Notes: generated from the letters alone by a model not told the origin. 32,000 bases of DNA from Candidatus Saccharimonadota bacterium (GCA_004563595.2 CP042461.1:1290001-1322000); one strand, 5' to 3'. Positions 2,951 to 32,000 are shown, counted from the stretch's first letter. Program-made: numbers and translations.

Positions 2951-2980
2951 AAAACACCTGAATAGATCAGGTGTTTTTTT
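2951..2980. terminator. bidirectional rho-independent terminator
   Basis: aaaaCACCTGAatagaTCAGGTGttttttt. 7-bp GC-containing stem flanked by an A-run and a T-run. It sits between convergent genes and overlaps the stop codon of the minus-strand gene (2979-2981). Confidence 0.7.
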
Positions 2981-3413
2981 ATAAGTCAGAAAAATCTGCG
3001 GGGATATCATCTAAATCATTGAGATCTAGGTTTCATGGATCATAACTGGTTTTATTTCCAAATATTTTATTTCCAAGTTCTTCAATTTTTTCAAAAATCC
3101 TTTTTGGTTCAGCATACTTTTCTACATCTAAACCTAATAATCTTCCAAATATCGGAAATACAAATATTGTTAACACTGTTATAATAATACCTACTATAGC
3201 ATACCTAATAGTATTGATTGCTGGTTTTATTTTATCATCTTTTCACCCTGACAAGATAAGTAAAAGCCCTCACCATAAAATAAAAACTATTGAGAAAATT
3301 CCAGCAGCTAATACAAAAAGAGAAATAGCTAAAAGAATAAAGTCACCAAACTCAATCTGATCTCAAAATATAGATCATGTTTGATTTACGGCGTGAACAG
3401 TTTCTATAAACAT
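2979..3413 (-). CDS. small two-TM protein resembling CPR TrbC/VirB2-type (T4SS) pilin-like proteins
   Basis: ATG at 3411-3413, TAA at 2979-2981, 144 aa with several TGA=Gly. ...FILLAISLFVLAAGIFSIVFILWGGLLLILSGGKDDKIKPAINTIRYAIVGIIITVLTIFVFPIF... The TM / GG..SGG / KxxK / TM pattern is typical of the pilin-like family. Acidic C-terminal tail. Confidence 0.5.
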
Positions 3414-4085: not shown

Positions 4086-4170
4086 TGGTGCCCAGACCGG
4101 GAATTGAACCCGGACTTCCGAAGAAACGAGATTTTAAGTCTCGCGTGTCTACCAATTCCACCATCTGGGC
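4086..4170 (-). tRNA. tRNA-Leu (anticodon UAA), long variable arm, CCA encoded
   Basis: Reverse complement GCCCAGATGGTGGAATTGGTAGACACGCGAGACTTAAAATCTCG-TTTCTTCGGAAGT-CCGGGTTCAATTCCCGGTCTGGGCACCA. The cloverleaf folds by hand and is very similar to E. coli tRNA-Leu(UAA). Confidence 0.9.
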
Positions 4171-6500: not shown

Positions 6501-6577
6501 TGGTGGAGCCTAGGAGAGTCGAACTCCTGACCTCCTGCGTGCAAGGCAGGCGCTCTAGCCAACTGAGCTAAGGCCCC
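6501..6577 (-). tRNA. tRNA-Ala (anticodon UGC), CCA encoded
   Basis: Reverse complement GGGGCCTTAGCTCAGTTGGCTAGAGCGCCTGCCTTGCACGCAGGAGGTCAGGAGTTCGACTCTCCTAGGCTCCACCA. G3:U70 identity pair present. Confidence 0.9.
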
Positions 6578-6682: not shown

Positions 6683-6761
6683 TGGCGGGAGCGACGGGAC
6701 TCGAACCCGCGACCTCTTGCGTGACAGGCAGGCGCTCTAACCAAAGCTGAGCTACGCCCCC
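6683..6761 (-). tRNA. tRNA-Asp (anticodon GUC), CCA encoded
   Basis: Reverse complement GGGGGCGTAGCTCAGCTTTGGTTAGAGCGCCTGCCTGTCACGCAAGAGGTCGCGGGTTCGAGTCCCGTCGCTCCCGCCA. The anticodon and T arms nearly match E. coli tRNA-Asp. There is one C:A mismatch in the anticodon stem. Confidence 0.85.
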
Positions 6762-6895: not shown

Positions 6896-7777
6896 TTATT
6901 TTAAATACTTTCTTGATGAAAGAAACCCACTCAATCCTCATACAAACACAAAGACTAACATTTCAATCAAGAATGTATTGTATGAAAAATCAAAAAAGTA
7001 TATATCTGAAAATGCAGCATTTATATTTTGTAATATAAAGACAAATATAATAAGGCTGAGAAGAAATGAAACAAAGGAATAAAAACTTCACTGTAAAACA
7101 AATGGACCATAAATAAATTTTTTACTTCATCATACTAATCTTGTGATATATATTTCATCTTTATAGTAATAGATAAAATTTCCAATAATAGAATACGTGA
7201 TTACAAATATAGAAAGCAAAAATGTTATAATAATTATGTATAAACCTATACTTAATATATCAAGTACGTGAATCACTTGATTTATTTTTTTGTACTGAGT
7301 TGTATAATTTGAAAAATGCTCTATATCAGATTCATCTTTTGATAGTATATATAATTTATTTTCAATAAAGCTATTCATTTCTTCATACTCTTCTAGCTGA
7401 ATCTGAGAAAGAATGATCGTATCGGGAAGGGGATTTGTCCTCTCAAGTATTTTTGCTAAATCTGGTTCTTTCAAACGTATGTCCTCTAGAATTACCTCCT
7501 TTGTTTTATATTCAACCTTTATTTTTCATCAGATTTTCTTGATATCTTCTATAAGTCAAATTACTTCTGTTGAACCTTTATCATATTCTTCATCTAAATA
7601 AAGTGAAATAGTAAGCTTTGAATTAATCGAGCTTATTAATTTAAAACTTACATCATGAAGAAGAATAAGGATGTTTATGAAGAACATAAGGAGTGTGAGA
7701 ACCAGAACAGATGAAAAACTCAGAAATTTATTTCTGAATATATTTTTGATAGAATATTTTGCGATACGAAATAGCAT
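6896..7777 (-). CDS. ftsX: cell division permease-like protein FtsX
   Basis: Track ORFs 7556-7777 and 7130-7474 are joined, and the frame extended to the TAA at 6896-6898, by reading TGA as Gly. MLFRIAKYSIKNIFRNKFLSFSSVLVLTLLMFF...KDEIYITRLVGGSKKFIYGPFVLQGSFYSF...VGGLSGFLSSRKYLK. This is the classic FtsX topology and motif. No ftsE is adjacent. Confidence 0.85.
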
Positions 7778-7854: not shown

Positions 7855-7885
7855 AATAAAAAAGCATATTTTATTATGCTTTTTT
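7855..7885 (-). terminator. rho-independent terminator of the 771-aa gene
   Basis: aaaaaaGCATAttttatTATGCtttttt. On the minus strand the hairpin is followed by a long U-run. The stop codon (7874-7876) lies in the loop. Confidence 0.6.
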
Positions 7886-10189
7886 ACGAGTGAATGTTAT
7901 CGTATGCTTTCAATTTTGAAATTGATTTACTTCTTCATTATTAAAAACAGATTGGGCTAAAAATTCAATCCCCGTTATCTTGGAAGTACTTATTCTTTTT
8001 CATAATACATGAAATACTATACTTCATTCTGAAACTTCTATATCATTGAATTCTATATTACTTGAATTCGAAATAGCAAACGTTTGTTTATCTATTAACA
8101 ACTCTTGAGATTGTGTATTAAATTGTAATATTTTATCATTATTTACTCAAAAATTAATTCATTGAGATAAATTTCAAACTCCTACCTGATACAGCTCTCT
8201 TTTAAACAACTCAGGCTCAGGTATTGTTATATCTAATTTCAATAATTCCTTTTCTTTTGAGTCTATTTGTTTGCTTAAGATAATATTTTCATTTTCTATT
8301 TTTTGTTTTTCAGCATCTAAGTAGCTGAAAAAGTCATGTGTAACTCAGTCCATTTCCTCATAGAGGTCTCAGATAGTCGTCACCCCCTTAGGAACCTGGT
8401 TCTTTCAAAAATACCTTTTGATTTCATTACACAGTAGCCCAATTATTTCTTTATCTTCTGAGCGAAGTGTGTGTATTTCTTCTCAAATTTCTTTTTGAAC
8501 TATATTTTCATAATCATCTATACTTCCTTCTTTAATATCAGAAATCGTTACATCTGTAATATCTCCATAGTTTAACCAATCGTCCCATTCCTCTAACTCT
8601 TCCATTCTCCTAGTGCTAGAAATAGAGGTTATTCATTCTATTTTTATCTGCCCCTCCTTCTTTTCAACCTCTAGTTGTCACTTTTCTCCTGTTAATTCAC
8701 TAATTTTATTTTGCCTTATCTCTTCTTCTTTCATTCTTTCTGTATTTGCAGTTTCAAGCTCCAGTACTCATTTATCATTTTCAAATTGGATTATTCCAAG
8801 CTCTAATATTTCTTTGAGTTTTCAATTTTTTAACTTTCAATTCTCAAAATTATCTGGATCATTCAGTCATGAAAATTGTAATACTACACCACCTACTTGA
8901 TATCATTCTTCGGAAAATGTTTGTTGCCAAAAGATCTGTGATTTTTTTTGATCTAGGCTTCAAGAAATTTTCTGAATTTTTCATATATTCCCTTTATTAT
9001 CTTGAAAATCTTGCTCTCAGAAATCTATACTCTTAAAAACTCCATCTCATTCTATTATTTCCCCATTTTTATCCTCAGTTTTTCAACTTCATAGTAATGA
9101 ATCAAACATCTTGTACTGTGACGACATTATCTCAAGTGATAACATTGGATTTTCTCAATGAAATCAAAGAAATGATGCAATGATTTTTCAAATGAATGGA
9201 ATCTTAAATAAACCTGATAAAATTTTTTTAAATGTTGATCAAATATGTTCATTATTTATAAGCTGCAAAGTATATTCTTGCATTTTATCTCCATATTGTA
9301 GTTTTTCTGATAACTTCGATATATCTTCTCTTGATTTTAATACGTACTGCTTTAAGTCCTCTACATCAAAATCCTGAAGACTCCTTTCAGTTTTTGTAAA
9401 ATCAATTTCCTCAATAATAAGCCCCTCTACTCATTGCTCTATTTCTGATGGCTTTTGAAACCATTCAACATGAGAAATGATATTCTGTTTTTCTTCCTGA
9501 GATAAGTTTGGATAATTTATTTGTATATATTGATTTACTTCAGTAAATTTATCAACATATGGTTGAATAATATTTGCAAGACTCCCTTCTAACATACTTC
9601 CTTGTTCTACCACTTTTTCAGTATCATCAAACACATCAAGAATATTTTGATACTCTCAACTATTTACAATATCTTTTACCTTTACTATCTTACTTGAAAA
9701 TCCTTCCGTTATCTGTTGTGATAATCACATTAAATCCGAAGATAATAACCTATTTGCTAACCCTAATTTTAATAGCTCTTTTTGTGCTGGTGGCAAAAAA
9801 TCAAAGTTTTGAAATACAGATTCAAAGTGAGATTCAAAGTAACTTTTCATTTCTTCAAACCTCGCTGATTCAATTCACTTTGTTGCATTATCCAAAGTTA
9901 CTGCTTCAAAGCTTTTTTCATTTAATTGAGTCTCTAAATAGTCTTCATACACGTGTTTTCAAATTACCGAAAAATCCCCATCTTTTTGTCATGATAATTC
10001 TTTCTTCATGAGATCAAGCTCTTCTTGTGTAACGTCTAAGATCTCGTTTTCTGATTCTAATCAAAACTTTTCTTGGACATACCTATGGAATTGTTTTTCT
10101 TTTTCAGGGTCGTTGATAATACTCTTTGATAAATCCTCTACCGTTTTTATTGGTGGTGTTACAGCTTCACGTTGTATTATTTCACTCAT
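7874..10189 (-). CDS. large hypothetical protein (771 aa), acidic, coiled-coil rich
   Basis: ATG at 10187-10189, TAA at 7874-7876. Every codon of the frame was checked: no TAA/TAG and many TGA. It contains track ORF 9431-9634. Starts MSEIIQREAVTPPIKTVEDL and ends ...QNGKHTITFTRKKA. One hydrophobic stretch (FKKILSGLFKIPFIGKIIASFLGF). No family recognised. Confidence 0.8.
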
Positions 10190-10363
10190 GCGTAATAATT
10201 AAAATATACTATTATTATAACTGTATCATAGTCTTAATTATATTGCAAAATATTAAAAATACTGGGCCTATAAGTATTATTTAGTAATTGTCAATTTATA
10301 AATTTGAAATTACAGATATATATATGATATACTAACTAGGAATTTAAAAATTAATGCAAAATT

Positions 10364-13300
10364 ATGGCAGGTAGTACAGAAAATAATAACTATAGTTCTC
10401 TCGTTCAATCTATTGAACAAGCGACAAAGAATAAAAGTACTCTTGATGATGTAACTATACAAGTAGCTGAGGAGGCTCTTTTAAACACTGATATTGATGC
10501 AGGTCAAAAAGAGAAACTTTCATGATTATTAAATGAGTATAAAGCTCTTATTCAACAAACTCACACAGAAGTTGCTCAAACTCAAATTGATGTAGAAAAA
10601 AATCCTGATCAAATAATTACAGAATTAGTTGATGTAATAAAGTCAAAAAATATTTGAAAATTCACTGAGTCATTTTCTAAGTCTGTAATCAAACAACTTG
10701 ATTTTTCTGAAGAAAAACATCCTGAAAAATATACAAAAATGCTTTTATTATTAGCTGAAATAAGCAATATCTATGATAAACCTGAATCTACTCAAAATAC
10801 AGATTTAGAATGAGTGCTTAAGTCTGAATGAAAAAAACTTCAAATTATTATCACCGAAGCAAGCTTAGATTTAGAGAACAATACTCTTGAGAAAAATTTA
10901 GACTCGTATCATCAAGCAAAAACTTCAACAGTTCAAAAAATGATTTTGGATTATATTCATGAAACTGAAATTAAGAATAAAGGGTATACTATTAGGCATG
11001 ATGTAGATAATAGTTTCTTAGTAGTTAATAGGGATAATAGACAAATTCGTACTAATGCAATAACAACTATCCAAGATCAAGTTTCATCTCAAGAAATGAA
11101 AGATTACGTAGCTTTCCAAAAAACTGATGAGTATGAACTCATGAATTCTGTTCCTGTATTATGAGATTCAACTGTAAAGGATATTATAAGACAGGCTTCT
11201 GGTGAGACTCAAAAGGAAATAAAAAAATTTACTGAAACAACATGATTTAAAATGTTACTTCCATTAGCTGCTCTTGCATTTATATTTTGAATAGTTGGAG
11301 GCAAAATGAGTTTTTGAAAAAGGTTGTTAGTATTACTAGGATGAGGAGCTGCCTTATTTGCAGGAAATATTAGTGCGCAAGAAATGTGACATGGGAGTTT
11401 ATTTACACTTGTAAAGAATGGAATTAATGAAGCTACTGACGGTTTAGTAAAAACAGACGATTGGAAGCAAAAAACACGTCCTATGAATGTGTTTAATGAA
11501 ATTGAATTCCTCAATGATAATGCTGAATATCAACTCGGCAACAATATTCTTACATGATTATTTACAAACATATATTCAAATGATCATTTTAAAAATACAC
11601 ATATATCAGTAATTGAAAGATTTATTACAAACAAATGAGCTGTTGCAAAAGATGTTTTTGGGGAACCTCTTCCTAAAAAAGAAAATTGAAGCGATTATAC
11701 TACTGGAGAATTACAACAATTCCTGAGACTCACATTGTGAGCAAAGGATAGTGCCGATACTTATGGAGACCACTTATTACAAAGACGTGGCCATATTCCT
11801 GGAACATCTCCTCAAAGATCTCAAGAGCCTCATTCACTTATTCCTGGAACCGATCTTGAAAATACTCAAGAAGCTCGTTCACTTATTCCTGGAACTGATC
11901 TTGAAAATACTCAAGAAGCTCGTTCACTTATTCCTGGAACTGATCTTGAAAATACTCAAGAAGCTCGTTCACTTATTCCTGGAACTGATCTTGAAAATAC
12001 TCAAGAAGCTCGTTCACTTATTCCTGGAACTATTACGGCTGAAGAATTAGAAAACAATGAAATAATTCGTTATCAAACTATTTGATATTTTGAAAATGGT
12101 ACTCAGTATTTATTCTGAGAAGATGGAACAGATACGGCTCTTGATTATGACAGCCTTTCACCAAATTTTAAAGAAGCTTTCGACAATTATTATGGAGTTT
12201 CAGAACAAGCTGAAAATCTCTTATTTATATTAAATACGATTGGTTGAAAAACTGAAGAAATAGATACCCTTAATCAATCGCTTAATCAGGTCCATATATA
12301 TAAACTTGATGAAACTATACCACAACTCCAAACAACTATACAAAATATCGTTTGAGCACTTCCATGATCACTCGGTGATGTATCTGATAGAGTGGGTATT
12401 TTAGAATATCTCCGTGAAGAAGGACTTTACGATGCTGTTAGCAGAGAAATAGTTGAAAAGAATTTTGATGAAATAGTAAATCTTTCTGAAGAAGATTTAC
12501 AAAATTTTATCGAAAATGGGACTACAAACAACAAAATAGATCAACTAAAAAGAGAAGATTCTGATTTATATAATAAAGTAGTAGAAAAGAAAAATGAAAT
12601 AGAAGAATACATAGCAGAGTTTAGATCTGAAATTCTCTCACAACCAGAGTATGAATGACTTGATCAAAACGCTATCCTAAAATCAACAAAAAATATTTTC
12701 TTAACATGATTTACAAAACATTTATTATTTACCACTCAACGTGAATCAGAAATGGGGGTATTTGACGTAAATCAACAAGGATCAGCTGAGTTAAAACTTT
12801 TTTGAGAGATGGAATGAGTATGACTCTTAGATATCAGTGATAAAAACATAGATTTTTGGTGAAAAGAAGCTCTCATTATGGTATGAACTCAAGCTATTGC
12901 TATTGGAATATGAGCTCTTACTATGTGAGCCTGAACTATTGCAGTAAATGCTCTTGTACATGGAACAAGGTGAGTAAGAGGATTAAAACAGATGAGTAAT
13001 ATTTGAAAAATTGCAAATGGGACAATAAAATGATCATGAATAATGCCATGAACATGAGTTACAGCCGCTAAATTAGCAAGATGAGTTAGTACATGAGCAT
13101 TAGGATGAGTATCTTTTAATGCTTGATATACTCTTGTAAATAGTGGGTTTGCATGAGAAAACCTATATTCAAAAGAATGATTTATGGATGCTGCAAAATT
13201 TTGAATAGCATTAAAGTGATTTGAAGCATTTAAAAATATATATAGAGGTGTTGCATGAGTCTCAACAAAGTGAAACATACTAAAAGAAAGTTCTAAATTT

Positions 13301-13804
13301 GTTGTGAAACATGGGGTAAACATATGAGTTCCCGTTGCTATTGCGATGTGATTAGATTGATGAAAGTGAGCTCTTGATATAAGCTTTGATGAATGAGAAT
13401 GGACCTCAGAAGAAGTACTTCAAGCAATGACGATAGTTGCTAGTTATGCTCTCATTAGAAAATATGGATCAAAAGATATAGCATCAGCAAAAAAGTGATG
13501 AGAACAAGTTTGAGAGTTTGCAAGGGCAAATAGTGGGAAGGTTTGAGAGTTTGTAAAAAACTCATGAGAAACAATTCTTGGTACATGAAAAATTATCGGT
13601 TGAGTAATAAAAGTAAAAATGTGAAAAAAAGGAGTTGAAGTTCAACAAGGAACAAAAACCATGAAGGAAACATATAAAGATCTGAAACCAGGTCAAACAG
13701 CGAAAATGAATAATTGAATTAAAGTGAGAAAAAAAACTACCACACAAGTCATAAAAGATAAAATTCCAAAAGGACCTACTCTAAATAAACCTGGAATTCA
13801 ATAA
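10364..13804 (+). CDS. very large hypothetical protein (1146 aa) with central TM hairpin, 15-aa tandem repeats and a Gly(TGA)-rich hydrophobic C-terminal region
   Basis: ATG at 10364, TAA at 13802-13804. The frame was checked line by line with no TAA/TAG. It joins track ORFs 10940-11164 and 12392-12658. Starts MAGSTENNNYSSLVQSIEQ. TM region TTGFKMLLPLAALAFIFGIVGG...LLVLLGGGAALFAG. No family recognised. Confidence 0.85.
11834..12031 (+). repeat. 45-bp in-frame tandem repeat, about 4.4 copies
   Basis: Unit TCACTTATTCCTGGAACTGATCTTGAAAATACTCAAGAAGCTCGT at 11834, 11879, 11924 and 11969, plus a partial copy at 12014-12031. Copies 2-4 are identical and copy 1 differs by 1 nt. Encodes (SLIPGTDLENTQEAR)n. 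Confidence 0.95.
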
Positions 13805-13840
13805 ACAAAAGAATGTCAAGTATTTGACATTCTTTTGTTT
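13803..13840 (+). terminator. rho-independent terminator, 17-bp perfect stem
   Basis: AAACAAAAGAATGTCAAgtatTTGACATTCTTTTGTTT, immediately after the stop of the 1146-aa gene. Confidence 0.75.
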
Positions 13841-13928
13841 ATTTGGTATGATATATATACTGAGTATTATCGGTTATTAATTGTTTACACAAATAATCCC
13901 GATAATCTCGGGAAAAGGAGAATTTATT

Positions 13929-14387
13929 ATGAGTAATTCATTAGATGGTTTCACTGATCAAATAGTAGAAACTTTTTCGAAGATAACATTGATAAAAGCT
14001 GTTACATTTGTAGTATTTTTAATACTTACAAAAATCAATGCATTTTCTGATATACCTCTTCCTATTTACGTTGTAGCTGGAGGTATTGCCGCATTACTTG
14101 CATTCAAAAATGAAAAAGCTTATGGATGGGGAGTTGCAACATATATTGTTACACTCTTATGCATAATGCCCTATATAAATGAATGGAGTATTGCAATTAT
14201 TGCAACTGGTCTAGTAATGGCAGTTTCAATATGTGGAATCTATGCTATTCGGCAAAAAGCCGTCTATCTTGGAATTGTATCTGCATTTATACTCGCTTGT
14301 TCCATCAATCAAGTGTCTCAATTCACACTTGAGCAGATAAATGATGTCAACATCGAAAATTTTGATCACAGAAACCGAGGTATCTAA
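13929..14387 (+). CDS. hypothetical 4-TM membrane protein (152 aa), TGA-free, preceded by a Shine-Dalgarno motif
   Basis: ATG at 13929 preceded by AGGAG (13916-13920) with an 8-nt spacer. TAA stop at 14385-14387. MSNSLDGFTDQIVETFSKITLIKAVTFVVFLILTK... All 9 Gly are GGN. The track starts this ORF at a TTG (13881), which I consider less likely. Confidence 0.75.
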   Translation: MSNSLDGFTDQIVETFSKITLIKAVTFVVFLILTKINAFSDIPLPIYVVAGGIAALLAFKNEKAYGWGVATYIVTLLCIMPYINEWSIAIIATGLVMAVSICGIYAIRQKAVYLGIVSAFILACSINQVSQFTLEQINDVNIENFDHRNRGI

Positions 14388-14395
14388 GTTACTCA

Positions 14396-14427
14396 AAAAG
14401 AAAAAACCGAGCTATGCTCGGTTTTTT
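14396..14427. terminator. bidirectional rho-independent terminator between convergent membrane-protein genes
   Basis: aaaaaaaaaaaCCGAGCtatGCTCGGtttttt. Confidence 0.75.
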
Positions 14428-14435
14428 GTTGTATA

Positions 14436-15017
14436 TTACCCTCTTCTGATTGTATCCATTTGAAAGAGCTTATTCATAGCTCCGGTTAATGAAACATCAA
14501 AATCATCTTGGGCAATAGCTTCAGCATATTTCGTCATTTCAATTACCAAATAGTTACAAGGTAATAATAAGAGAAAAGCGTTCACTATAGCAGGTAAATC
14601 AGTAAATAACGTCAAAGTAAGTATTATCATCATCACAATAATTGAGAAGATAAAACATGCTTGAGCCCATACTACAATTATTGCTGTTAATTTAATATAA
14701 TCTTTATCCTCACGAATATCTACAGAGAATTCATCAATAGTTTCTGGTTCATATGCCCCTTTCGACACCATTTGATTCACAGTTGCATTTGCTGCATTTG
14801 CTTGACTGACAAGATACAATCGCAAAACTACCAATGCAACAACATAGCAGATAAAAACAAGGAACATAGCAATATTTGAAAACGATAAAATCATCATAAT
14901 CAAAACGGATACAAACCCCGCAACTACAGGAAATCTGGCTAATTTCAAGGTAAACCACACAAAGTATCGTGGTGAATTTAAATCAGAAACTACCTTTTGT
15001 CCAAATAACTCACTCAT
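14436..15017 (-). CDS. hypothetical multi-TM membrane protein (193 aa), TGA-free, SD-like motif upstream
   Basis: Intact track ORF with a TAA stop. Upstream on the minus strand: AAAGGAataaaatATG. MSELFGQKVVSDLNSPRYFVWFTLKLARFPVVAGFVSVLIMMILSF... All 5 Gly are GGN. No family recognised. Confidence 0.75.
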   Translation of the reverse strand: MSELFGQKVVSDLNSPRYFVWFTLKLARFPVVAGFVSVLIMMILSFSNIAMFLVFICYVVALVVLRLYLVSQANAANATVNQMVSKGAYEPETIDEFSVDIREDKDYIKLTAIIVVWAQACFIFSIIVMMIILTLTLFTDLPAIVNAFLLLLPCNYLVIEMTKYAEAIAQDDFDVSLTGAMNKLFQMDTIRRG

Positions 15018-15196
15018 ATTTTATTCCTTTAGCATATAGCTAATGTTGTAAATTTAGTATTCAAAGAAAATAAAGTAAATATAGCTTACCACTAAATAGT
15101 TAATTGTCAATATATATTTATTTTTTTTCTCTCTCATTTTTCGTCAAAATCTCTTTTTTATGGTAAAATAAAGGAAATATAAATAATAAAACACAT

Positions 15197-16909
15197 ATGG
15201 CTTGAAAATTTGAACAAATACTTTCAACACACTTTGAACAAGATGAAATACAACAATTAGAAAGTATGCCTGACTATGAGGCTACAAAAAAAAGAATCGA
15301 ACAAATCCATGCAGATGACATGCTTGCACACTTAGAAGCAAAAGTAAATGCTGAAATTATAGATAAGAAATTATCTCTTAATGAAAGATTCCAAAAATTT
15401 CAACAAAGTATTGGAGAAATTACAGATTCCGCAGAGAGTAAGTCATCAGCAACTCAGTTGAATCCTGAAGTATATATTGCAAGTCAAAAAAAAGAGATGA
15501 GAGAAGAGTTTCTTACAACTCTTTCTGGTTGAAGTAACCCCGATATCACAGATACAAAAACATGGACTTGAATGCTTGGAGTATGGGCATTCGAACAAAT
15601 AGAAAACTGAGAAAAATTAGATAAAAATTCATCATTTGTTGATAAAATTACCACTTGATTTATGTCAAAAATTTGAATTACTCTCCTATCATTTTTATGA
15701 CTCTGAAAAGCCTTTTCAGCATATAAAAATTGAAGTGAAAATATACAATTACCTGTAGAGGAAGAAAAAGAAAGAACTATTAGTACTAACTCTGAACAAA
15801 GAGAAGCAAGAAGGTATAGCTGAGCGACGTTGATATTCCTTAATATTATTAATAGGGAAAATAATACTGAAGTATTTGATAATCTTAATTTTCAAAACCT
15901 AACATTTGCTCAGCTTCTTGAATTCAAAGAAGCAAGTTATCATAACCAAAAATTCAATGATTTTTTTAACTCACTCCCTGAACATAGTTATAGTAGGAGA
16001 GAGATTACTTGAGCAATTGATACATTAATTGATTGAAAATGACGTACACTTATAGATGATATTTTTTCTAAAAGTGAGTATAAAAATGACTACAAAACAT
16101 TTTCAGTAAAAAAACTCTTCTTATTAATGTGAGAAAATATTGAGCTCTTAGGCTCTGTTCAAACTCAAAGCATATTAACACAAGCATCAACTTGAGACTT
16201 TAAAAATATGGATGAGGAAACAAAAAATTATCTCAATAAAAGAGCTCTATCAGAAAATATTTTTTCACTTGCAAGAGATGAGAGTAATTATACCTTTGAT
16301 AACAAAAAAAATATTCTAGCTAAACTAGACTGAACTGAATGAATTAAGGATTGAATGGAAAAAGAAAGAGTTACCGAGCTAGTAGAATATTGATTTGATA
16401 TACAAAGTAATTTATTTCAAAAAGAAGATGGTGCATTTCAGATATATGAGGGATGAAAAAAAATCTCTGATATTTTTATAGCTGATCCTCTTTCGCTTAG
16501 AGAAGTAATAACATTGAGAATAATTACAGGTGAAGTTACTGAATTTAATAAGATGAACTCTATACAACAATCTGCACTTTATTTATCACTCATCTGATTT
16601 TTAAAAGAAAGGTGAGAAAACGAAACATTCTGAAATTATCTTGTATGACTATGAAAATGATCTGCTGATATAGCTAATGAGACATGAGATGAGTTGTCTT
16701 GAAAAATACCGCAATGAGTTAAAAATATAATTTGAGATGCTTTCAAGGTAATTGCAGACACATCGGCAGAACAGGCATGAAATATGCTTGAAACAACTAT
16801 TTGAATGGTAAAAGAATCTCCATTATTATGAATATGAGCCTGAGCACTCTTACTATTCTGACCATGGTTTGTAAAAAGACAAAATGTATTCCAAGTAATA
16901 ACAAGATAA
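15197..16909 (+). CDS. large hypothetical protein (570 aa) with TM segment and Gly(TGA)-rich hydrophobic C-terminus
   Basis: ATG at 15197 (in-frame TAA 33 nt upstream), TAA at 16907-16909. Frame checked line by line. It joins track ORFs 15266-15532 and 15830-16012. Starts MAGKFEQILSTHFEQDE. ...ITTGFMSKIGITLLSFLGLGKAF... ends ...LLGIGAGALLLFGPWFVKRQNVFQVITR. Confidence 0.8.
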
Positions 16910-27113: not shown

Positions 27114-27147
27114 ATAAAAAAAGGCAGCTTTAAAACTGCCTTTTTTT
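27114..27147. terminator. bidirectional rho-independent terminator
   Basis: aaaaaaaAGGCAGctttaaaaCTGCCTttttttt. Overlaps the stop codon of the transposase-like gene (27146-27148). Confidence 0.65.
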
Positions 27148-27664
27148 ATTTCCCATACTCTAACTCATCCAAACTCAACTCCTTATTATCCAAGTACTTC
27201 TTTGGACCAGTCTTTAAAAGTCTATGAATAGATGTATACTTATAATCTTTAATATCCTCAACGAGCTTATACTTAAGTGGATTATAATTCACAAAGCTCA
27301 TACATTTATGTAAGTATTCTTCTGAATCAATACGAGTGCTTTTAAATCTCCCTTTAAAAACAGGCTGTTTTAGCTCTGAGGGGTATTTCTTCCTATAAGA
27401 GGTTGCATATGCTCATTGAAGTCTTTTCATGAATTCTGAGAGCCTATGTCATGTTTTGATATTTTTTACTATAAGATGAAAATGGTTTGGTAAAAATGAA
27501 TATGAAACGAGCTTTATATCAGAATAATCTTTGAGATATCGAAGAAGGAGTTCATAAAACTTATCAAATTCTTGATCGTCGTGAAAGAGTGGCTCAGTTG
27601 AGAGTCACTTGTTATAGATATGGTAATAACTATTTTCTAGAAATTCTAGTCTGGAATTTCACAT
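27146..27664 (-). CDS. HUH/Y1 tyrosine transposase-like protein (IS200/IS605 TnpA superfamily, RAYT-like)
   Basis: MGNSRLEFLENSYYHIYNKGLSTEPLFHDDQEFDKFYELLLRYL...VSYSFLPNHFHLIVKN (HUH motif)...FKGRFKSTRIDSEEYLHKCMSFVNYNPLKYKLV (catalytic Tyr region). 172 aa. Single gene with no tnpB partner and no obvious IS ends. Confidence 0.8.
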
Positions 27665-28426: not shown

Positions 28427-29761
28427 TTAATAACTTTTTGATCATAAGTCTAGCTCGTCTTCCATATTAATATGAAGGTCCTCTGATCATGTAATTCATA
28501 GAATTGTATAATCTATTCATGACTTTACAAGATTTAATGTAATTACGGTACTTGAAGTTGTTCCAGCAATAACTATTTTATAGTCCTCTCCTCTTGTGGA
28601 ATTTGACAGTGTTCTATTTGTCTGTAGTAGTGCTGACATATTAAACTCTAATACATCACCACTCATGACTCATACTACTCTATTTGATGAACTTTCACTA
28701 TTATAAATAGAATAAACAACATCGGCATCTCAACTTGATCATAGCGTTGATAAGCGAAGTTTTTCAAGCTCTATAGTAGGAGAATTATTTCAATTTTCAA
28801 TAGTATTATTCCCAAACATAGCTCTGATATTCAACTCTGGAATGTTACTTGAAAGATTTTGCTCTACCTTTACTTCTAATACACCGGGAACAATAGAAAA
28901 AAGTTCTCATGGTTCAGTAACAGTATACATAGCTATATCATTTCCTGATGAGATTCCTTTTACATCATCAAATCAAACTTTACTTACATAGATATCCTTG
29001 ATAGTTTTCCCTGCTTTTTCCCTCCCTATTGGTGCTGTTTTTATCTTAAGGCGTGCTTGTCTAATATTTTGAGTGATTATAAAATCATTAAGATTATCAA
29101 AGGTAATTTTTGCTTGGGTAGAACTAATAATATCTAGCTTTGATGATCATACTGAATCTATTACACTTCATTCAAGATATAACGTAGCTGTTTCGATCGA
29201 ACTCTTTATATCTGTTAGGTCTTCTGGCCCCGAAATATAAAAGATAACTTTCCCTACGTCAGACGCTTCGTATAACGAGCTAAAGCTTTGTTTATATATA
29301 AATACTTCCTCTCAAGCTAAAAGAGTTTTCTCTTCTTCATTATAACTATCTGAGAATCCTGGATACACTGTCATTTCTTTCTCTTCTATTATTTTTTCGT
29401 CTTCAGTGATTTCATTATCTTTTATGATTATTGCTTGCTCTGATTTTAAAGCAGCTAATGTATATGAAGTTTTTAGAGTTAAATAATTGAGTATTAATTT
29501 TAATTTTTTTGATCTCACATCAGTTCTATATTTTAATTTTTTTTCAAGAGAGGTCAGTTTGTTTGTAAGAAGATTCAAAAAGATTTCATTTTCTTTCTTT
29601 TTTTCTAGAAGACTATCAATAGCTTTGATGTATTTACTTCAATTTGTAATAATTGAAAGTCTTTCTGCTGATTCAGAAATATCATTTTCTAGGTTTGCAT
29701 GTACTCAACTTTGAGAGAATACAAATAGAAAAGATAGTAACAATGTAATAATTTTTTTCAT
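28427..29761 (-). CDS. secreted hypothetical protein (444 aa)
   Basis: ATG at 29759-29761, TAA at 28427-28429, frame checked. Signal peptide MKKIITLLLSFLFVFSQSGVHA, a coiled-coil N-terminal part, then a beta-rich C-terminal part. Contains track ORF 29312-29578. Confidence 0.75.
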
Positions 29762-29828
29762 GATCATAATATTAAAAAATTAAATATAATTCTATTATAT
29801 ACAATCCTAAATTTTACACAACAAAAAA

Positions 29829-29907: not shown

Positions 29908-32000
29908 CTAGTAAGATCTAGTACCCATATCTAATTCATCAGACATATTGTTAGTTAATGAAGTAGCACCAGTATTGTCAGCAACACTGTATGTAACCCC
30001 AGTTTCTAATAATTGTAGAGATGAAGTATCACCATCTGCAGTACCAGTAATAGTGATTTTGAATGTTTCACTAGAACCAGCTGAGATTGTTTGATTTGTA
30101 TCAGTCATACCAGCAAGAGTAAATGTAACTATATCAGGACTAGTAGTAATTACTCATGTGATAGTATCACTTGAGTCATCAGTATTAGATATAGTATATA
30201 CTTCAGCACCTGCGATAGAAGTACCAAGAGTAGAGAACACTAATACGTCAACTAATGTGTTAGCAGTAGAGTTATCATTATCTTTAGTATTGTCTCCAGC
30301 AGTAGAAGTTAATTTTAATTCTGGTGTAGTACTAGAATTAAGAGAAGCTTCTACAGAAGCTGTAAGAAGAATAGGAACTATAGCAGTATCTTTAGAAGAA
30401 CTAGAGATAGCTAATGTTTCATTCGTAGCATCTTTACCAGAATCAACACCTTGAACATCATTTAATGCAATATTAGTTATGTTAATACCTGTAACTGTAG
30501 CACCATTTTTTTGGTAACCAATAGTTTCAGTATTTAATACTAATTTAAGTTCAGCAGTAGACTCTTCAACTATTAAATTATCTAAATCATCAAAAGTAAT
30601 AGTAGTAGCAGTAACATCACCGATATTATTCGTATCAATTAATGTATCATCTAAGTATAGAGATGCATTAACTATTTTTTCTGTTAAATCAGTATCAACA
30701 GTGAAAACAACAGTTTCAACATCCATAGATTCATTAATAGATTGAACATCAACTGAGAATACAGTTTCAGAAGAACCAGCTAAAATAGTTTTAGCATCTT
30801 CATTGTCTTCATTATTAGCATCAGCAGTTATAGTAAGTTCACCGAATCCAGTAATAGAGATTTGTCTATTAGAAAGGATATTAGTAGTAACAGTAACATC
30901 ATCTTTATCATCATCTTCAACACTTAAAGAAGTAAGAGTTGTTTCGATAAATCTTTGATCTACTGCATCTTGTCCATCAACGATAGAAAGAACAACAATA
31001 AATGTTTCAGTAGCGTTAGATTCTATTTTAACGTCTGTAAAGTCGTTAAATGTAACAGTACCATCAGAAGCAATTTTAGAACCAGATTCTTGGTCTAATA
31101 AATTAGCCTCAGAAACAGAACCTACGTATAATCTTGCTTCAGAGATAGTTTGACTTGGTAAGTTAGTTGAACTAAATATAAATACTTCAGCTTGAGCAGT
31201 AACAGCAACAACATTAGCAGTTGTAGCAACATTTGAACCAGCTAAATCACCAGTAGCATTAGCAGCAGAAGGGCTAGTGAAAGCAGTTCCTGCAACAGCA
31301 GCAGTTAAAACAAGATCAGCACCAGCGCTTGTTAATGTTATACCAGCTGTAGCGTAAGCAGCAGCATTAGCAGTAACAAAATTAGCTGCAGTAGTAGTAA
31401 GATCAGTAGCAAAAGTAGAAGTTAATGGACTACCTGTAACACCAGCTGTAGTAATAGCTGCAGTACCTGAAGTACCAGTAATAGTAAGAGTATCTACTTG
31501 AGCAACTGCAGTAACAGCAACAACAGCAGCAGCAGCAGTTGGGTTAATTTTAGCAATTACTTCATCAACAGTTACGTAAGAAGATTCTTCAGCTTCAACT
31601 TCCCATTGTAAAGCAACAATATCTTTTGCTCCTCTAACAACAGTAATATCAGATAAATTAACTTCAGAAGCAGTAGCTCCAGATTCAGAACCATCAATAG
31701 AGTTAAAAGAAACACTAGAAGGAGTGATATCAGTAACTTCTTTATCATCTTCAGTTTCTTCAACATAGAAAGCACCTGCAGTTAATATATTAGTATTACC
31801 AGTAACAAAAGAGATTTCAAATGAAGCACTATCAAATAAATTGATATCTTCACCAGTATCAGCTCTAATAGACCAATTAGTTGATCCTTGAGGAATAATA
31901 ACATCTATACTATCTTCAGAATAGATATCAGAACTTGTACCTCCTAATTGTAATTCATACGAAGAACCTGTTTCTTCATTATATAATTCAACATCATCAA
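29908..32000 (-). CDS. large acidic Thr/Ser/Ala-rich surface (S-layer-like) protein, C-terminal >697 aa (5' end beyond window)
   Basis: TAG at 29908-29910. The frame was checked to position 32000 with no TAA/TAG. It joins track ORFs 29908-30108 and 30154-30726 through a single TGA (30154-30156). It shows repeated beta-sandwich-like modules (e.g. TVTFNDFTDVKIESNATETFIVVLSIVDG and TITFDDLDNLIVEESTAELKLVLNTETIG) and an Ala/Thr-rich segment. Confidence 0.8.

Follow-up and report, generated by a model that had tools for sequence, protein, structure and literature searches.

A fast-diverging cluster of membrane-associated protein genes beside ftsX in Gracilibacteria that read UGA as glycine

The described partners of FtsEX (EnvC, PcsB, CwlO with SweC/SweD, and RipC) are long helical proteins that act at the membrane. 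ZipA and the N-terminal region of FtsK combine a membrane anchor, a low-complexity variable linker and a folded domain, and in pore-forming colicin systems the gene for a large helical protein that contains a hydrophobic helical region precedes a small polytopic immunity gene, which lies on the opposite strand and has its own promoter. We analysed a stretch of 32,000 nucleotides (GCA_004563595.2, CP042461.1:1290001-1322000; 'the window' below means this whole stretch) in which a cluster of genes at 7874-16909, between ftsX and queA, invites comparison with each of these systems. The cluster encodes three large proteins, A, B and C. What recurs across related lineages is a B-like gene with a large gene after it, and in most of the lineages sampled the latter is a detectable homologue of C. 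The lineages and their loci are designated L002 to L018.

The likeness to the FtsEX partners is one of position, beside ftsX: A immediately precedes ftsX and shares its strand, and B is transcribed divergently. In contrast to those partners, A, B and C have no visible signal peptide, no LytM, CHAP or NlpC/P60 domain (Pfam, NCBIfam) and no fold match; ftsE is not adjacent to ftsX in the examined loci, and A is missing beside ftsX in the distant loci L011 and L013. With ZipA and FtsK the likeness is an architectural analogy, B having the order anchor, linker, domain and a neighbourhood of division genes, but sequence or structural similarity is lacking and neither an FtsZ-binding nor a motor domain was detected in the cluster proteins.

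Searches for relatives were otherwise negative. The preliminary description had placed A, B and C in no recognised family, and none of them gave a significant match to Pfam, NCBIfam, PHROG, PADLOC or PDB sequences, or in Foldseek. For A, B, C and the two small proteins of the cluster, s168 and s193, the best E values against Pfam-A, NCBIfam, PHROGs and PADLOC were 0.0057-0.3, far below the cut-offs for acceptance. None of 17 members of the B family passed threshold against Pfam, the only hits being one to each of SH3_3 (E 1e-3, below the gathering score) and DUF4131 (E 0.0046). Profiles of A, B, the conserved module of B and C found, by hmmsearch of PDB sequences, either nothing or best E values of 0.068-0.56. 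Foldseek comparison of structural models, themselves only partly confident, with PDB gave best E values of 0.75 for B and 0.9 for A; the best BFVD match of B (E 0.006) had a TM-score of 0.08 and a root mean square deviation (rmsd) of 38 Angstrom. Literature searches on Gracilibacteria with FtsX or hypervariable genes found nothing on the cluster, and a term search of Sieber et al. (2019, PMC6851277) found neither FtsX nor any passage on the cluster. The view that all three large proteins are uncharacterised, lineage-specific and membrane-associated was borne out. Clusters of hypothetical genes of this kind are common in genomes of the Candidate Phyla Radiation (CPR). By all tests made the distance from known systems is maximal, which reflects ignorance as much as novelty: the cluster counts as new in that no relative was detected, and not in the sense of a demonstrated new mechanism.

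The reality of the genes depends on the genetic code. Under translation table 11 the interval 7874-16909 contains no long open reading frame (ORF), and long-ORF coverage of the window rose from 4.7 kb to 38 kb once UGA was counted as sense. UGA stands at invariant glycines of Era (G1 motif GRPNTxKST, and DTPxI, where x is the UGA position) and of Mfd (Walker A motif xDVxFxKTE, and motif VI, RxRVxR); the genetic code of the window is therefore code 25, in which UGA is glycine. The predicted ORFs of 771, 1146 and 570 amino acids (A, B and C, respectively) proved exact, under code 25 only, and the organism is, as had been proposed, a CPR bacterium with UGA as glycine (Gracilibacteria). A pseudogene or non-coding interpretation was ruled out by full-length conserved orthologues free of TAA or TAG stops. 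The window holds genes for tRNA-Leu(UAA) (4086-4170), tRNA-Ala(UGC) (6501-6577) and tRNA-Asp(GUC) (6683-6761), all on the minus strand and the last two between EF-Tu and ftsX; no tRNA-Gly(UCA) was found within it.

The public protein collection translates these lineages with UGA as tryptophan (4-9% Trp), and this was allowed for in every search. From the tryptophan plus glycine content of the stored translations, we estimate that in some lineages about 87% of glycine codons are apparently UGA. Back-translated DNA pattern scans succeeded only with all Gly/Trp positions masked; a metagenome scan for the closer B subfamily, with each of these positions masked as X, yielded four loci, and a scan of GTDB genomes a single locus already among those found. 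A word-prefiltered search with B as query returned only B itself. It missed an orthologue of 32% identity encoded on an NCBI contig, although the product of a neighbouring gene on that contig does occur in the database searched, and an exhaustive phmmer search was required. The exact window proteins are also present on a JGI metagenome contig and on an NCBI contig.

There are five genes in the interval, and they form at least four transcription units. ftsX (293 amino acids, 6896-7777, minus strand) follows A directly, on the same strand, after a 96-bp gap. Gene A (7874-10189, minus strand; 34 UGA codons) and gene B (10364-13804, plus strand; 60 UGA codons) diverge from a spacer that, as previously given, measures 174 bp by its coordinates (10190-10363). 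A sigma-70-like site lies in this spacer (10304-10333, plus strand; 10/12 matches, extended TG), in a promoter scan that overall was not enriched relative to shuffled sequence. The preliminary description counted three genes, but there are two more between B and C, both small and encoding polytopic membrane proteins (152 and 193 amino acids). The first, s168 (13929-14387, plus strand), encodes 152 residues from its ATG, or 168 if translation begins at a TTG at 13881; the second, s193 (14436-15017, minus strand), was recognised by hydropathy and orthologues, and neither has a UGA codon. Upstream of s168 is the best promoter-like site of the scanned region, a consensus match only (13824-13852, plus strand; TTGACA-17-TATGAT, extended TG, 11/12 matches). 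The convergent s168 and s193 are separated by a bidirectional intrinsic-terminator-like hairpin at 14401-14427, with a 12-bp stem containing five GC pairs and T-runs on both strands. Gene C (15197-16909, plus strand; 36 UGA codons) completes the interval, and queA begins 63 bp downstream of it.

Protein B, whose orthologues are 32-41% identical to it, can be divided into seven parts. An acidic D1 (residues 1-290, net charge -14; 18-35% identity among orthologues) leads into a transmembrane (TM) hairpin (291-340), the most conserved part (35-46%). Then follow D2 (341-475; 24-31%), a repeat linker that is the least conserved part (476-572; 13-25%), and a second acidic part, D3 (573-825, net charge -30; 24-38%). 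A Gly-rich membrane region with 36 glycines (826-1040; 28-43%) and a basic tail (1041-1146, net charge +15; 23-26%) end the protein. An AlphaFold2 model built from an 18-sequence alignment had a mean predicted local distance difference test (pLDDT) score of 59.8. Values of 70-95 were reached in three helical domains, within D1 (about 30-280), D2 (about 365-470) and D3 (about 590-820), and the TM hairpin, the linker and the Gly-rich C-terminal region were modelled with low confidence.

Exhaustive phmmer with B against 1.84 billion representatives gave 36 hits, about 20 of them real; those restricted to residues 461-581 or so were driven by the repeat. P0009 and P0010 are full-length orthologues, and P0011, P0017 and P0024 share the N-terminal part (D1, hairpin and D2). 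The other family members have only residues from about 560 to 1040 in common with B, set within proteins of 836-1679 amino acids that differ in the rest. This conserved B-module, at about residues 556-1040 (12029-13483, plus strand), comprises D3 and the Gly-rich membrane region, and over it B aligns with 17 other proteins in the 18-sequence alignment (phmmer E 1e-127 to 1e-16, query coverage about 560-1060). Its motifs are GY..G..YIIG.DG.P, DL.DR..VL.YIR, IS.EEL..FI.NP and LF.DI.GIG..D.SDK, followed by GTE..AI.AGA.TMGAG..AVNAAVYGTRG, SFY.GYG, EG.NMYS.EGL and EPGEW.AE..QA; the B of the window has divergent forms of several of them, for example DEGEW for EPGEW. Judged by these alignments, B is a member of a new module family of about 480 amino acids, a helical domain joined to a Gly-rich membrane region. 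All but one of the family members are Trp-rich, that is, code-4 translations from organisms that read UGA as glycine, and the sole named member is a hypothetical protein of 'Candidatus Gracilibacteria bacterium'. The family appears to be restricted to lineages with UGA as glycine. It is also rare in public data, with 90%-identity clusters of one to three members each, from one or two contigs.

The variable linker of B is encoded by a 45-bp tandem repeat (11794-12031, plus strand; Tandem Repeats Finder score 397, 94% matches, 5.3 copies), each unit specifying the 15 residues SLIPGTDLENTQEAR. Every B orthologue has a different low-complexity repeat at the same position. Among database copies of B that are otherwise identical, one has three repeats (P0045) and another a deletion of five amino acids (P0046), differences that reflect either real population variation or assembly collapse. 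A comparable case is the hypervariable PTD-repeat gene that Sieber et al. (2019, PMC6851277) described in a closed Gracilibacteria BD1-5 genome from a Deepwater Horizon oil-degradation microcosm. Its repeat region varies within the population, as that of B may do. It differs from B, however, in lying at another locus, in having PTD 9-mers instead of a 15-residue unit, and in encoding a protein with an N-terminal TM segment that is predicted to be extracellular.

The cluster was next compared between lineages. In L002, the NCBI sea-ice metagenome-assembled genome (MAG) 'Candidatus Gracilibacteria bacterium HBSea_ice_MAG768', the order is era, trx, queA, C' (578 amino acids), s196, s157 and B' (1119), and then, divergent from B', A' (771), ftsX, EF-Tu, S10, L28 and S16. 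Identities between window and L002 are 36% for A, 32% for B, 35% for C and 36% for s193, against 92% for EF-Tu, 77% for Era, 72% for QueA and 68% for FtsX; the cluster diverges about twice as fast as its neighbours. The same layout is repeated in further fragments (L003, L004, L005, L009 and L010), with s193 missing from L009 and L010. In L011, a distant Gracilibacteria assembly, both flanks are unlike those of the window and the cluster is retained: ftsX is divergent from a B of 1387 amino acids, which is followed by a 146-residue s168-like gene, a 227-residue s193-like gene on the opposite strand and a 642-residue C-like gene, with no A. Further unannotated genes follow the cluster of L011 (10792-12541 and 12672-16682, both plus strand), including one for a 1336-residue protein not detectably related to B.

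Other loci keep less of the set. L013 has EF-Tu and ftsX divergent from a B-like gene (1382 amino acids), then two short non-membrane ORFs, a 942-residue protein and queA. In L014 and L015 the B-like gene precedes one for a protein of about 915 residues, with queA next in L014; in L016 it precedes a C-like gene (E 1e-30). L018 has no ftsX, and its B-like gene is followed by one for a large protein of C-like architecture that gave no profile match. The downstream proteins of about 915-942 residues in L013, L014 and L015 showed no relation to A, B or C by hhalign (probability below 1%), and neither did the C-terminal extensions of the long B-like proteins to A (probability below 1%). In L013, L014 and L016 the B-like gene is not followed by any gene resembling s168 or s193. 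The gene set is conserved in part: B followed by a large gene recurs, but A, s168 and s193 are each absent from some lineages, and the small genes are facultative, being present in some lineages only.

ftsX adjoins the cluster in the window and in L002, L009, L011 and L013; it does not do so in L018. The window FtsX is full-length and of the cell-division type, aligning end to end with two NCBIfam cell-division FtsX models (E 2.5e-28 and 4.4e-28), below their curated cut-offs. No ftsE lies beside ftsX in the window, L002, L009, L011 or L013; either the ftsEX operon is split or ftsE is elsewhere.

These comparisons do not agree with the preliminary description of the interval as an accessory block. 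In several divergent Gracilibacteria the cluster is likewise found between ftsX and queA, homologues of B, s168, s193 and C stand beside ftsX in the far more distant L011, and A, B and C have GC contents of 0.28-0.34 and a UGA usage typical of the genome. The cluster is not bordered by an integrase or other mobility gene, and the sole transposase-like gene of the window is about 10 kb away. The pattern shows that the cluster is vertically inherited and fast-evolving within Gracilibacteria. We consider it very improbable that the interval is a degraded prophage or mobile-element remnant in which B resembles a tape-measure protein. Like tape-measure proteins, B is over 1000 amino acids long, is predicted to be largely helical and has tandem repeats and hydrophobic segments rich in glycine. 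Tape-measure and minor tail proteins were numerous among its top BFVD matches (best E 0.006), and there were sub-threshold PHROG hits (E 0.006-0.1). The BFVD matches, however, have TM-scores of 0.06-0.1, at most 0.1, with rmsd above 30 Angstrom, as expected of long-helix noise. There is no significant PHROG or Pfam match, and no tail gene or other phage gene is present. The chromosomal site is fixed, with EF-Tu, ftsX, queA and era flanking the cluster in several divergent lineages, no relative was found on viral contigs, and composition and UGA usage are those of the host. Synteny, composition and the absence of viral relatives are the grounds on which the prophage or tape-measure explanation was rejected.

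Protein A has one conserved hydrophobic segment (residues 323-341), which contains lysine and proline, and a helical and beta-rich C-terminal part. Its orthologues in L002, L004 and L005 are 36-37% identical, that of L009 was found with a phmmer E of 2.6e-136, and an A profile matched no gene of L011 or L013. Gene A is specific to the clade of the window and was added there only. Its AlphaFold2 model, from a four-sequence alignment, had a mean pLDDT of 53 and exceeded 70 only at about residues 490-770, a region of long helices and a beta-domain of about 100 residues (about 670-768, pLDDT 70-88) that has no fold match in PDB. The hydrophobic segment of protein C at residues 151-169 is weak, and its C-terminal TM segment (541-559) is followed by a charge of +3. 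Orthologues of C are 67% (L003) and 35% (L002) identical, and its profile matched the 642-residue protein of L011 (E 1.2e-14) and a 639-residue protein of L016 (E 1e-30). A check of the sequences found no N-terminal hydrophobic signal in A, B or C; the mid-protein segment of A could be a signal anchor.

The preliminary description had considered B and C to be distant paralogues on the basis of shared motifs. All the peptides that it named are present, but their resemblance is no better than chance by BLASTP. The TTGF segments, FTETTGFKMLLPLAALAF (B 289-306) and KITTGFMSKIGITLLSF (C 150-166), align with E=8.5; a second pair of segments with similar residues is NVFNEIEFLNDN (B 375-386) and EVFDNLNFQNLT (C 225-236). 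The best BLASTP pair between the whole proteins had E=0.11 and was not collinear. Profile comparison with hhalign gave a marginal and unstable signal, with E 0.2 and a probability of 0.3% with 4 and 3 sequences (B and C, respectively), E 0.0058 and 6% with 9 and 5 sequences, in a register changed from the earlier run, and E 0.064 and 0.9% with 9 and 6 sequences; overall the hhalign probability was 0.3-16%. In a first comparison restricted to one region, column shuffles gave 13.3 +/- 2.4 and the real profiles 20.0, a value attained by 2 of 150 shuffles. With deeper profiles the score was 28.4 against 12.9 +/- 2.0, with 0 of 150.

If B and C were nonetheless ancient paralogues, each with a helical N-terminus, a membrane segment and a common juxtamembrane domain, their joint action as a hetero-oligomer would be expected. 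In most of the sampled lineages with a detectable C homologue the B and C genes lie side by side, and the best hhalign segment (B 403-461, C 226-281) lies in the confident D2, right after the membrane segment of both proteins; the E of 0.0058 and the shuffling result with deeper profiles point the same way. Set against this are the weak and non-collinear BLASTP match, the low hhalign probabilities, the shift of register between runs and the weakening of E to 0.064 by one extra C orthologue. Column shuffling, moreover, breaks hydrophobic periodicity, so that significance is overstated, and the region was picked post hoc. Jackhmmer searches started from D2 of B or from residues 170-330 of C each converged inside their own family, with no bridge, and never recruited the other family from either side. 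Common ancestry is thus not supported by BLASTP, hhalign or jackhmmer, and we regard it as quite unlikely.

The small genes differ from their neighbours in codon choice. By hydropathy, s168 (or its 152-residue form) encodes a small polytopic membrane protein with 4-5 hydrophobic helices, and s193 a membrane protein with two strongly hydrophobic regions. Orthologues of s168 align starting from the ATG; the s168 profile matched the 146-residue gene of L011 (E 5.5e-6), and the L002 counterpart was recognised by position and TM pattern and later by profile. Orthologues of s193 are 82% (L003) and 36% (L002) identical, and phmmer linked s193 to the 227-residue gene of L011 (E 3.8e-11), which is alike in position and strand; no gene was found at the s193 position in L009/L010 or L016. 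UGA accounts for 48% of glycine codons in the window overall and 54-84% in A, B, C and FtsX, but for 0 of 9 in s168 and 0 of 5 in s193, whose neighbouring genes use it at 45-84% of glycines. The small-gene orthologues in four other lineages (L002, L003, L009 and L011) likewise have none. Pooled over the five lineages, the summed counts are 0 UGA in 94 glycine codons (P about 1e-33 at a UGA fraction of 0.55). Within the window the same avoidance was found only in EF-Tu (0/40) and in a surface-layer-like protein at 29908-31998 (1/43); the ribosomal proteins L28 and S16, and KhpA, use UGA. Because their codons are free of UGA and they have a near-consensus promoter-like site and a strong terminator-like hairpin, s168 and s193 are probably produced in much larger amounts than A, B and C.

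What the cluster does can be proposed only tentatively. It is possible, though short of probable, that its products form a membrane-bound scaffold for the cell's own envelope or division machinery, perhaps with FtsX, and are not secreted adhesins, toxins or parts of a mobile element. Five membrane-associated proteins would be made, from units consisting of A with ftsX, B, s168, s193, and C with queA, and most of A, B and C would face the cytoplasm, fastened to the membrane of the cell itself through hairpins or tail anchors. Since no signal peptide is visible, D1 and D3 of B are acidic and its tail is basic, the bulk of A, B and C is most probably cytoplasmic; the acidic helical bundles of B, together with the lack of a visible signal peptide, would fit the cytoplasmic face better than a surface adhesin. 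Conservation within B, which peaks at the TM hairpin and the Gly-rich region and is lowest in the linker, is consistent with a scaffold.

It is also conceivable, as the main rival to a scaffold, that the cluster serves host interaction or conflict: B, perhaps with A and C, would enter the membrane of a host or competitor by means of the Gly-rich region, and the producer would be shielded by s168 and s193 in the manner of colicin immunity proteins. The layout of B and the small genes, one of which lies downstream of B on the other strand, recalls colicin and immunity pairs, and the small genes have their own promoter and terminator and codons like those of abundant proteins. The divergence of the cluster at about double the rate of its neighbours, the hypervariable linker with a copy number that varies among otherwise identical database copies, and the conserved, Gly-zipper-like hydrophobic region would also suit such a system. 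Gracilibacteria are predicted to be symbionts, and large putative toxin-like proteins are noted in the Gracilibacteria BD1-5 genome of Sieber et al. (PMC6851277). However, neither a visible signal peptide nor a recognisable secretion, toxin, adhesin or defence domain is present, Pfam detects no colicin pore domain, and the colicin hits of A are noise (E 0.9, TM-score below 0.1). The confidently folded domains are acidic helical bundles. Colicin pairs form plasmid-borne, SOS-regulated operons, whereas the cluster is chromosomal and syntenic, at a position fixed across lineages and with no cassette variation like that of polymorphic toxins. The putative immunity genes, moreover, are lacking in several lineages: s168- and s193-like genes are absent after the B-like gene in L013, L014 and L016, and s193 in L009/L010. 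A role in host interaction or conflict seems unlikely.

Several points also weigh against the scaffold. The role is read from layout, composition and neighbourhood only, without similarity of sequence or fold. Adjacency to ftsX could be residual macro-synteny, given that it is absent in L018 and that ftsE is not adjacent in the examined loci. The topology is drawn solely from hydropathy and charge, and the positive charge (+3) of the short loop in the B hairpin points the opposite way; an ectodomain of 370 amino acids could be exposed by C, which has two hydrophobic segments. Fast divergence and a population-variable repeat are typical of surface or conflict proteins as well. Finally, each of A, s168 and s193 is lacking in some lineages, which leaves the existence of one machine with five parts unproven.

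Features elsewhere in the window were recorded alongside. At its left end, on the minus strand, are a CHASE2 sensor (3-1214) whose cyclase part lies beyond the window, complete CHASE2 and guanylate cyclase being found in L002 and L013, a weak FecR-like protein (1225-2475) and a small protein with a sub-threshold T4SS_pilin match (2979-3413; E 2e-5). This neighbourhood of CHASE2, FecR-like and T4SS_pilin-like genes is also kept upstream of ribosomal genes in L002 and L013. To the right of the cluster, a 172-residue homologue of IS200-like Y1 transposases (27146-27664, minus strand; PF01797, E 7e-9) stands by itself between genes for a hypothetical secreted protein and a leucine-rich repeat lipoprotein, and might be of a domesticated type or one associated with repetitive extragenic palindromes. 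Two adjacent genes at 28427-29767 and 29908-31998, both on the minus strand, encode large Ser/Thr/Ala-rich proteins with no Pfam hit. Their C-terminal peptides, NMEDELDLGSKSY and NMSDELDMGTRSY, are nearly identical, and this common peptide could be a lineage-specific sorting or anchoring signal.

Gracilibacteria and their relatives are uncultured, recoded and probably symbiotic. Their distinctive envelope and cell-cycle traits are mostly hidden among 'hypothetical' genes. Because their proteins are stored with UGA as tryptophan, and back-translated searches fail unless glycine and tryptophan are masked, families such as that of B are systematically under-detected. A searchable object is now defined: a syntenic cluster by ftsX, a module family of about 480 amino acids, the arrangement of B followed by a large gene, and two small membrane proteins. 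A bolder proposal, which we think unlikely to hold, is that B and C, with A, s168 and s193 in the clade of the window, constitute an undescribed membrane machine specific to Gracilibacteria, with folds that have no known relatives. If so, the abundant, UGA-free small subunits would build its membrane core, and the machine might replace or extend missing parts of the divisome or envelope around FtsX, or mediate an episymbiotic contact or feeding interface.

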